Below, in pieces: positions 1,118-2,395 of a stretch of 2,395 nucleotides of DNA; position 1 is the stretch's first letter; each line of letters opens with the position of its first letter. This DNA is from Escherichia coli (GTDB lineage Bacteria > Pseudomonadota > Gammaproteobacteria > Enterobacterales > Enterobacteriaceae): NCBI RefSeq assembly GCF_003334335.1, contig NZ_QOWQ01000088.1; one strand, written 5' to 3'. Position numbers and translations under genes: made by a program. Below the pieces are notes generated by a model. That model was not told the origin of the DNA. It searched no databases and saw only the letters and a program-made list of their open reading frames with translations.

Positions 1118-1486
1118 ATGACCGAGCGCATAGAATTTGTTTTGCCTTACCCGCCGACGGTGAACACTTACTGGCGACGCCGTGGCAGCACATATTTTGT
1201 ATCAAAAGCCGGGGAGCGTTATCGCCGGGCAGTGGCGCTTATTGTTCGCCAGCAGCGACTGAAATTAAGCCTGTCCGGAAGGCTGGTAATCAGGATTATT
1301 GCAGAGCCACCGGATAAGCGTCGTCGTGACCTGGACAATATTCTGAAAGCACCGCTGGATGCGCTGACGCACGCGGGGTTGTTAATGGACGATGAGCAGT
1401 TTGATGAAATCAATATTGTACGTGGCCAGCCAGTATCTGGTGGACGGCTGGAGATAAGAATTACAGAGGTGGGTGTGCATGAATAA
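1118..1486 (+). CDS. rusA: Crossover junction endodeoxyribonuclease RusA (Holliday junction resolvase)
   Basis: 122-aa ORF whose ATG immediately follows the upstream stop (TAAATG at 1115-1120). The translation carries recognisable RusA blocks: LPYPPTVN.YW near the N-terminus, PDKRRRDLDN (catalytic aspartate cluster), DALT.AGLL.DDEQ, and GGRLEIRITE near the C-terminus. The size matches the ~120-aa RusA family. Confidence 0.9.
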   Translation: MTERIEFVLPYPPTVNTYWRRRGSTYFVSKAGERYRRAVALIVRQQRLKLSLSGRLVIRIIAEPPDKRRRDLDNILKAPLDALTHAGLLMDDEQFDEINIVRGQPVSGGRLEIRITEVGVHE

Positions 1487-2168
1487 CCAGTATTTACAGT
1501 TTGTTCGTGAGCAACTCATGATTGCCACTGCAGATCTCAGTGGGTCGACAAAATGCCAGCTGGAAGCCTGGCAGGAAAATGCCCTGTTCGATACAGGGCG
1601 TTACAGACGCAAAAAAATTCGTTACCGCGATGAGGTAACCGGAAAAATGATCACGCGGGATAATCCCCCGATCCAGGGTAAACAATCACTGGCGAAAGGC
1701 TCATCAATTGCGCTGGTCAGTCCTGTTGAGTTTGCAACATCATCGTGGCGGCGTGCCGTTCTGGAACTGGAAGAACATCAGAAGGCGTGGTTGTTGTGGT
1801 GTTATGGCGGAAACATTTGCTGGGAGCATCAGATCGCGATAACGCAGTGGGTGTGGAGTGAATTTAAAACTCAGTCCGGCTCCAGAAAAATTGCAGTGAA
1901 AACGCTGGAGCGTGTGAAGAAGTTGATCTGGCTGGCGGCACAGGATGTCAGAGGATGGGTTACCGGGTGTGAGGTCTACCAGAGACAGGAGCTTGCCAGA
2001 CTGTGTGGAGTTAAGCCTGATAACTGGAGCCATAATTATGCGAACTACTGGCGTGAGATGTGCGATATTTTTAAGCGCCTCGATAGAGAATCCTTGATTT
2101 GCTCCGTGAAAATAAGAGCGCAACAAAAAGCGACCTTTTCACGACGAGATATTGCAAAAGTCAATTAA
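1479..2168 (+). CDS. Putative late-gene antitermination protein Q-like (assignment by synteny, not by recognised motif)
   Basis: Open frame with stop TAA at 2166-2168. I prefer the ATG at 1479 (MNNQYLQ..., 229 aa) over the GTG at 1473 because GAGGT at 1466-1470 gives an 8-nt spacer; this start overlaps the rusA stop by 8 nt. The gene sits immediately downstream of rusA and about 70 nt upstream of a strong intrinsic terminator, the canonical position of Q in lambdoid phages. I do not recognise a diagnostic Q motif and see no CxxC zinc-finger pairs, so the function is inferred from gene order. Confidence 0.5.
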   Translation: MNNQYLQFVREQLMIATADLSGSTKCQLEAWQENALFDTGRYRRKKIRYRDEVTGKMITRDNPPIQGKQSLAKGSSIALVSPVEFATSSWRRAVLELEEHQKAWLLWCYGGNICWEHQIAITQWVWSEFKTQSGSRKIAVKTLERVKKLIWLAAQDVRGWVTGCEVYQRQELARLCGVKPDNWSHNYANYWREMCDIFKRLDRESLICSVKIRAQQKATFSRRDIAKVN

Positions 2169-2190
2169 ATCGCGTATGTTTCGTATAAAT
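2152..2190 (+). promoter_or_regulatory. Candidate sigma70 late promoter (pR'-like), location approximate
   Basis: TTGCAA (2152-2157), a 17-nt spacer, then TATGTT (2175-2180), predicting a start near 2187. An alternative -10 TATAAA at 2184-2189 has no good -35 and could instead be a -10-like pause element in the initial transcribed region, as Q-dependent promoters use. Hexamer matches are moderate (4/6 each) and the call is inferential. Confidence 0.3.
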
Positions 2191-2233
2191 CTGATATTTT
2201 GCCGATTTTGTACGTGATGGCAAAGTAAGAAAA

Positions 2234-2257
2234 AACCACCGCCAGGTGGTTTTTTTT
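2234..2257 (+). terminator. Rho-independent terminator (tR'-like, possibly bidirectional)
   Basis: Stem AACCACC (2234-2240) pairs with GGTGGTT (2245-2251) around loop GCCA, followed by a run of eight T (2250-2257). An A-tract (2230-2235) precedes it, so the structure is symmetric and could terminate in both directions. Confidence 0.75.
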
Positions 2258-2380
2258 ATGTCCGAAAATCGCGTCAGTACAGTAAACGCGCTGGTGGCGG
2301 TGAATACCTGTCTTTCAGCTTGCTGGCTTTTTCGACAAGAGTTATTGGTGTGTCACGTTAACCGGAAAAGGGAAAAAGAC

Positions 2381-2395
2381 ATGCTAAAACAGCAG
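2381..2395 (+). CDS. Possible 5' end of the downstream gene (partial, product unknown)
   Basis: ATG at 2381 (MLKQQ...) preceded by the purine-rich AAAAGGGAAAAAG (2365-2377), with GGG about 8 nt upstream. The frame is open to the window end, but only 5 codons are visible. An in-frame ATG at 2258 could extend it, but that stretch is rich in rare codons. Confidence 0.3.

Follow-up and report, generated by a model that had tools for sequence, protein, structure and literature searches.

What is the role of a roughly 100-bp stretch at the end of a phage Q-like gene in Escherichia coli, for which no annotation of its own exists? The stretch occupies positions 2152-2257 of the window, by which is meant the whole 2,395-nucleotide piece of DNA analysed here (RefSeq assembly GCF_003334335.1, contig NZ_QOWQ01000088.1). 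A preliminary description of this DNA had listed a candidate promoter (TTGCAA-17-TATGTT), a TATAAA hexamer, an imperfect dyad and a terminator, and direct reading finds each of these motifs in its place. The answer proposed here, which is very probably correct, is that 2152-2257 is the late-gene control module (late promoter pR', Q-utilisation site qut and terminator tR') of a phage-82-type lambdoid prophage. It is carried by four observations: the family to which the Q protein belongs, elements conserved in both sequence and spacing, the fold predicted for the RNA, and the genomic surroundings.

The elements were compared across 131 loci, made up of 6 phage records, 80 contigs of viral origin with Q proteins 66-100% identical, and 45 loci in genomes of many Enterobacterales genera, where Q identity is 33-67%; E. 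coli, Salmonella, Klebsiella, Citrobacter, Enterobacter, Serratia and Pantoea are among the genera represented. The features of the module and its flanks, with the basis for each, are as follows.

1479-2168, plus strand: gene for a Q antiterminator of the Q82 family, 229 amino acids (Pfam PF06323; identity to phage 82 Q).
2152-2157, plus strand: -35 hexamer TTGCAA of the late promoter pR' (present as TTGCAA in 124 of the 128 loci, with a constant 17-bp distance to the -10).
2175-2180, plus strand: -10 hexamer TATGTT of pR' (position conserved in 128 loci).
2156-2194, no strand assigned: interval (-31 to +8) in which the Q-binding element (QBE) should lie, judging from published 82 templates.
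2187, plus strand: probable transcription start (+1), an A (7 nt past the -10; fits the published numbering of 82 pR').
2192-2203, plus strand: putative sigma70-dependent pause element, an extended -10-like TGaTATTTT (+6 to +14) followed by GCC (+15 to +17) (conserved spacing; description of 82 pR').
2211-2212, plus strand: predicted promoter-proximal pause at +25/+26 (U, A), after the AT-rich AUUUUG (homology with 82 pR').
2195-2227, plus strand: predicted leader hairpin 1 (+9 to +41), with the dyad as its core (minimum free energy fold; 12 pairs and a bulged G, closing on a loop of 8 nt).
2224-2235, plus strand: A-rich linker AAGUAAGAAAAAA between the hairpins, with repeated A-R-N triplets (sequence and fold).
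2230-2257, plus strand: intrinsic terminator tR', a CCACC-GCCA-GGUGG stem-loop and U8 (motif scan, both strands).
2187-2257, plus strand: predicted terminated late-leader RNA of about 70-71 nt (fold; homologous modules).
2258-2395, plus strand: presumed beginning of the late operon under Q control, with 123 nt of conserved untranslated sequence and then, from 2381, the first codons of a 65-amino-acid open reading frame (ORF) (RefSeq coding sequence in an identical E. coli locus).

The gene upstream fits this interpretation well. The product of the 229-amino-acid ORF at 1479-2168 matches Pfam PF06323 over residues 4-220 (E 5.3e-82) and is 66% identical to phage 82 Q and 63% identical to phage 434 Q, and an identical gene is annotated in RefSeq as "bacteriophage antitermination protein Q". 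The Q-like gene of the preliminary description can accordingly be identified from these matches as encoding a Q82-family antiterminator. NCBIfam contains no model for this protein, and the PDB contains no relative of it; to our knowledge, the Q82 family is the sole Q family without a solved structure, and its mode of loading is debated. The module lies at the 3' end of this gene and overlaps it, the -35 element of the late promoter being contained in the final Q codons.

The promoter is part of an arrangement that is fixed in 128 of the 131 loci: a -35 hexamer, 17 bp, a -10 hexamer of the form TAnnnT (CAnnnT in 11), 14 nt, and a second -10-like element. The first -10 varies in sequence (TATATT, TACATT, TATGTT, TACGTT, CATATT or TATACT), with the A at its second position and the T at its sixth invariant. 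The second, TATnnT, lies exactly 14 nt past the first in 127 of the 128 loci, and is preceded by TGn in 124. The exceptions to the overall geometry are one truncated contig, one divergent Q 3' end and one frameshifted Q. In Gifsy-1, TTGCAA is retained as the -35 although it is outside the Q ORF there. What had been listed as a candidate promoter is thus conserved as a late promoter, with its activity in the window a prediction.

From this promoter, transcription would start at A2187, inside the range of 2187-2196 suggested earlier. IsrJ, a Salmonella small RNA (sRNA) encoded in Gifsy-1, has a mapped 5' end no more than 3 nt from the base equivalent to A2187. At 82 pR', a -10-like element is re-engaged by sigma70 once the transcript has reached 21 nt; this element is nearer to TATAAT than that of lambda and has an extended -10 in addition, and is followed by a GC-rich GCC at +15 to +17, an AT-rich stretch, and a pause at +25/+26, where +25 is a U (Bird et al. 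2016, PMC5001585). Placing +1 at A2187 reproduces every one of these published features, with TG at +6/+7, TATTTT at +9 to +14 (TGaTATTTT, 2192-2200), GCC at 2201-2203 and U +25 at 2211. On this basis we infer that 2192-2203 is a sigma70-dependent pause element, and that polymerase pauses at 2211/2212. The T at +25 is invariant in an alignment of 22 sequences. Positions +1 to +17 of the window are identical to those of the 82-like phage PhiR47_2 and of PPompW phages, as is the block AAATCTGATATTTTGCC, and the 3' end of the PhiR47_2 Q gene is 96.7% identical to that of phage 82. The pause element, TGaTATTTT-GCC, is the defining element of the module and was missed in the preliminary description. 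A full-text literature search for TGATATTTTGCC returned unrelated papers only.

The site at which Q would bind can be bounded in a similar way. A repeat of 82 pR' from -31 to +30 carries a functional QBE as well as the pause element (PMC4914094), which would confine the QBE of the window to about 2156-2194. The earlier suggestion of a Q-utilisation region is supported.

An intrinsic terminator is located between this promoter and the late genes. It consists of A6 (2230-2235), CCACC (2236-2240), the loop GCCA, GGTGG (2245-2249) and T8 (2250-2257); the upstream A6 makes it bidirectional, and the motif scan calls it on both strands. Relatives have different GC-rich stems and a U-tract at this position. 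For the 72-nt RNA covering 2187-2258, the predicted fold has two hairpins and an energy of -27 kcal/mol (z = -5.7; none of 200 shuffles does as well), and the A-run at the 3' end of the linker can pair with the terminator U-tract in this fold. A terminated RNA of about 60-70 nt, resembling lambdoid late leaders, had been anticipated; the prediction is now about 70 nt, and the homologous module of Gifsy-1 yields the 74-nt IsrJ. In an E. coli chromosome with an identical 123-bp segment, the gene order is hokD, rem, DUF968, rusA, Q, the segment, the 65-amino-acid ORF, iraM, holin, lysozyme and Rz, with the holin, lysozyme and Rz genes 1.7-4 kb further downstream (RefSeq coding sequences). This region of the window is a lambdoid prophage late-operon junction.

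In the window, the start site, the pause, the loading of Q and the readthrough would follow the phage 82 pattern. RNA polymerase with sigma70 would initiate at A2187 from TTGCAA-17-TATGTT, and at an RNA length of about 21 nt the still-bound sigma70 would recognise TGaTATTTT (+6 to +14) on the non-template strand. The polymerase would then scrunch a few more bases and pause at +25/+26 (2211/2212), aided by GCC (+15 to +17) and by U +25. If Q is present, it would bind its DNA site within about -31 to +8 and load onto the paused complex with the help of NusA; the Q-loaded polymerase, now terminator-resistant, would pass 2230-2257 and continue into the 65-amino-acid ORF, the lysis genes and other late genes. 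Without Q, as in a lysogen, every transcript would stop at the terminator as a 70-71-nt RNA composed of the 5' hairpin, the A-rich linker and the U-tailed terminator hairpin. The leader RNA is expected to be constitutive in the lysogen.

The dyad, with TTGCCGAT at 2199-2206, 10 intervening nucleotides and ATGGCAA at 2217-2223, had been suggested to be either a protein-binding site or an RNA hairpin. In the predicted hairpin 1, the 5' arm is made of pause-element RNA, and the loop contains the pause site. The fold has a z of -3.1 for +9 to +46 in the window, and the same interval across the leaders compared gives -4.1 to about +0.8 (median -1.5). Most lineages have a stem at this position, and its sequences differ: the arms are UUGCCG/UGGCAA in the window type, UGCCA/UGGCA in the 82 type, UGCUGCC/GGCGGCA in the Klebsiella type and GUGCC/GGCAC in Serratia, with UGCCAA/UUGGCA, UGUC.AAAC/GUUU.GACA and GUCG(CC)/(GG)CGAC elsewhere. 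In the ungapped alignment of 22 sequences in the register of the window, 89% of cells pair and double changes are rare, and 59 of 500 shuffles reach the observed number. In a wider covariance-model alignment, 88.6% of cells pair and the covariation score of 0.130 exceeds that of shuffles (0.081; 0 of 500 reach it), with the exchange of U-A and G-C at pair 13-37 providing most of the signal. Because this alignment leans toward structure, selection on hairpin 1 at the RNA level is suggestive rather than demonstrated. About ten leaders, including that of phage 434, have no hairpin 1, and their terminator stem starts at about +28 to +31.

It could be argued that the dyad at 2199-2223 works instead at the DNA level, as an operator bound by a dimer of Q or of a repressor. 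The dyad adjoins the pause site, and 82 Q presumably binds DNA in dimeric form (PMC4914094). This explanation is nonetheless very improbable, since the arms differ between lineages despite their related Q proteins (GUCG/CGAC being one of the forms listed above), the register of the dyad and the length of its loop vary, the 434-type and other short leaders are entirely without it, and an 82 pR' fragment that ends at +30, and thus does not include the right arm, supports Q loading (PMC4914094). Q binding at the dyad is unlikely also because its left arm overlaps the pause element and the pause site is in the loop. Since 434-type leaders have no hairpin and the 82 fragment to +30 is functional, the dyad would be dispensable for the switch. 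Of the two roles first suggested for it, the hairpin is borne out as a predicted stem and the Q-binding site is not; the role of the dyad is most likely structural, within the leader RNA.

Two further explanations concern the promoter and the terminator. The TATAAA at 2184-2189, initially described as a -10-like element, might be the working -10, in which case transcription would start near 2196 and produce a leader of about 60 nt with no internal sigma-dependent pause element. TATAAA does agree with the -10 consensus at 5 of 6 positions and so outscores TATGTT, but the sequence 16-18 bp before it is TCAATT or GTCAAT, neither of which is -35-like. It straddles the start site (-3 to +3) and is conserved in only 30 of the 128 loci, the others having TGTAAA or TGCAAA, whereas TTGCAA-17-TAnnnT is invariant; a start at 2196 would also put TATTTT-GCC at the start site, contradicting its published 82 position at +9 to +17. 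Of the three alternatives this is the least probable, and the hexamer is best regarded as incidental and not as a conserved element. It is also improbable, more so than a DNA-level operator, that the terminator only closes the early operon ending in Q, or a convergent minus-strand transcript, and that the promoter is a by-product of Q codons with no separate leader. The location of the -35 inside coding sequence, the bidirectional terminator and a promoter score at chance level are all compatible with such an origin. Yet the non-coding -10, start region and pause element are conserved as strongly as the coding part, with fixed spacing; the Gifsy-1 block including TTGCAAAACTGGATTAA stands after another gene, apart from Q, and still yields IsrJ; and the motif scan of the window shows no minus-strand promoter downstream of the terminator. 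The late-control module of the phage 82 type is therefore preferred to all three.

Several points weigh against this preferred interpretation. The promoter matches only 8 of 12 consensus positions, and the window holds 12 such sites versus 8.65 +/- 3.1 in shuffles; a consensus motif scan of the window does not call pR'. Taken alone it is at chance level, and it is credible only through comparison, that is, through the fixed distances in 128 of 131 loci. The leader transcript of the window is a prediction from its sequence. The match to phage 82 rests on the 96.7%-identical relative and on the published verbal description, as the 82 record X92588 ends at the Q stop codon. The QBE is bounded only to about -31 to +8. 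Finally, the host element resembles a Qin-like prophage, possibly defective, so that the late switch may be out of use. The Qin prophage of E. coli K-12 is uninformative, with no annotated RNA near its Q gene (ydfT, 250 amino acids).

Segment 2140-2262 occurs with 99% identity or more in at least 136 complete E. coli genomes, strain 7/2 (NZ_CP023820.1) being one that carries the identical module, and is recognisable in 1840 of 5426 (about a third); among the matches listed, nothing is annotated on it except the end of the Q gene. The terminator, the 123-nt untranslated region and the start of the 65-amino-acid ORF (window 2232-2395) are 90% identical to Stx2a phages (positions 2501-2662 of L135, LC567829.1), in which their counterpart follows a 126-amino-acid Q of another type and precedes a DNA methylase gene, tRNA genes and stx2A. 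For the stretch that runs from Q to the pause region, the only matches are to Q82-type phages (about 76%). These split matches, which place a mosaic joint just 5' of the terminator (about 2232), indicate that Q travels as one unit with the promoter, pause and hairpin, and that the terminator and downstream genes travel as another. The 123-nt untranslated stretch is strongly conserved between the window and the Stx2a phages. The window lineage carries the 65-amino-acid ORF where many Q82-type loci carry tRNA genes; one to three such genes are found 100-400 nt past the terminator in seven loci, as in Stx phages.

Upstream of Q, the window contains a DUF968/YdfU gene and rusA (1118-1486). Q begins at ATG 1479, before rusA has ended (its stop codon is 1484-1486); the overlap at 1479-1486, within ATGAATAA, suggests translational coupling. 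Phage 82, phage 434 and Gifsy-1, unlike the window, have a small ylcG-like ORF between rusA/ninG and Q.

Other elements were considered around the promoter. The phage 434 record (L001, 2169-2182) is annotated with a CII-binding site, TTGC-N6-TTGC, and a minus-strand paQ -35, located exactly across the late -35 TTGCAA; the window has no second TTGC (TTGCAATATCTCG), and a CII site or paQ of this kind was rejected. The best promoter-like match near the module is on the minus strand (TTGCCA-16-CAAAAT, 2223 to 2196, 9 of 12 positions) and is the reverse complement of the right arm of the dyad and the pause element. RNA started from such a site would be antisense to the late promoter and to the 3' end of Q. 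Since other lineages have a different right arm, the match is probably a coincidence. Two possible leader peptides, an idea derived from a match to the Phe leader, were also rejected. The first, of 13 codons from ATG 2176, begins upstream of the probable transcription start and is not conserved, and the second, from ATG 2217 (M-A-K-stop), has no ribosome-binding site and is absent from 82-like leaders.

The comparison with IsrJ bears on the leader RNA. The isrJ passages of the original report describe IsrJ as an experimentally detected, 74-nt Hfq-binding RNA of Salmonella with an invasion phenotype (PMC2330248). In Gifsy-1, isrK, a C4-like RNA and anrP, an antirepressor gene, come after the Q82-type gene (STM2617, AntQ), and TTGCAAAACTGGATTAAAACGGCTATATTTTATGTAAATCTGATATCG is present directly past the anrP stop codon. 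This sequence is an 82-type pR' with a relic of ancestral Q C-terminal codons (TTGCAAAACTGGATTAA). The Rfam family isrJ (RF01393, gathering threshold 37 bits) scores 100 bits in Gifsy-1, where its match begins 3 nt ahead of the inferred +1 and extends to the terminator (positions 4014-4121 of L134, the reverse complement of NC_010392.1). It passes the threshold in 12 of 20 scanned loci of other genera (38-94 bits), and 11 of these matches, at about positions 1306-1385 of their loci, begin 16 nt past the Q stop codon. The window itself, scanned with a method that does recover these true members, gives no match to the IsrJ model at E <= 10, either over its whole length or over 2140-2300. Other Rfam matches in the same two scans are all below threshold (IsrK RF01394, 19.4 versus 50 bits; Phe leader RF01859, 28.3 versus 55; STnc370 RF02064, 29.4 versus 54; RNAI RF00106, 20.1 versus 47), and these, along with OrzO-P, were rejected as driven by the terminator and AU-rich stretches.

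The window leader resembles IsrJ in starting, at the same position, from an 82-type promoter (TTGCAA-17-TATATT for IsrJ), in its first 11 bases (AAAUCUGAUAU), in its two hairpins and U-tail, and in its length; hairpin 1 is the positional equivalent of stem-loop 1 in the Rfam consensus, and a linker and terminator follow in both. From +12 on, the two sequences are unrelated, and only Gifsy-1 has an antirepressor cassette (isrK/C4, anrP) between Q and the promoter. The window leader can thus be considered a positional and architectural homologue of IsrJ and not a member of the Rfam family, which would itself be composed of terminated leaders of Q82-type late promoters. No statement that isrJ is a late leader occurs in the isrJ passages of PMC2330248 or Hershko-Shalev 2016, or in the relevant passages of two further papers that mention both IsrJ and antitermination.

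It may be, as a tentative and rather doubtful extension, that the 70-nt leader is an IsrJ-like, Hfq-dependent, trans-acting sRNA, constitutive in many prophage-carrying E. coli strains, with its 5' end held by DNA-level pause and Q-loading signals. This idea stems from the 5' hairpin, kept in most 82-type lineages by means of different stems, from the A-R-N linker and from the U-tailed terminator. The relevant passages of one report describe A-R-N repeats as an Hfq-binding motif (PMC4104026), and binding of Hfq by AAGUAAGAAAAAA is speculation. It is also implied that, in Salmonella, IsrJ is the terminated late leader of the Q (AntQ) system of Gifsy-1. In that case AntQ would have the isrJ terminator as its natural target, and isrJ deletions may also remove the late promoter.

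An unannotated stretch of about 100 bp, present in at least 136 complete E. coli genomes, can in this way be assigned to a well-understood mechanism, with exact coordinates supplied for its promoter, pause site, hairpin and terminator. The comparison also provides a family-wide view of Q82-type late promoters, with a geometry that is invariant across Enterobacterales and two leader architectures, and a catalogue of natural qut variants that could be useful for work on the structure and loading mode of Q82. Additionally, Rfam IsrJ, hitherto treated as an island-encoded virulence sRNA, is linked to the late-leader class.

Short RNAs from pR' are known for lambda (6S), 21, phi80, 82 and P22 (PMC7547250). 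The lambda 6S RNA and StxS are similar to the window leader in having a constitutive late promoter and a nearby terminator, and in being short by-products of antitermination. They belong to other Q families, have no sequence similarity to the window leader and are much longer (194 nt for 6S; 258 nt, processed to 74 nt, for StxS), and the lambda pause falls at +16. Hfq binding and action in trans by StxS indicate that an RNA of this kind can be an Hfq-dependent regulator (PMC7547250). The Pas sRNAs of pathogenic E. coli, in the passages that describe their loci, are unrelated, with PasD1 and PasD2 near a lambda-type Q (PF03589) and PasA and PasC near unrelated genes.

Closer parallels are found within the Q82 family. 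Phage 434 has a Q82-family Q, a promoter with TTGCAA-17-TATACT, and TGgTATGTT at +6 to +14; its leader differs in being about 54 nt long, with no hairpin 1 and a terminator stem from near +28. This second architecture, in which an RNA of about 51-55 nt has no 5' hairpin and the +25 pause is separated by only a few bases from the start of the terminator stem (about +28 to +31), is seen in the 434 record (L001, 2212-2266) and in ten other loci. Phage 82 itself (pR'82, qut82 and its terminator) shares with the window the Q82 family, a promoter overlapping the 3' end of Q, a pause element of matching position and type, and a hairpin (+13 to +37) followed by a terminator. Its -10 is TATATT and that of the window is TATGTT, the bases from -18 to -1 differ, and the loop and closing pairs of the hairpin, the linker and the terminator all differ as well. 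The module at 2152-2257 is a new sequence variant of a textbook late-control module.

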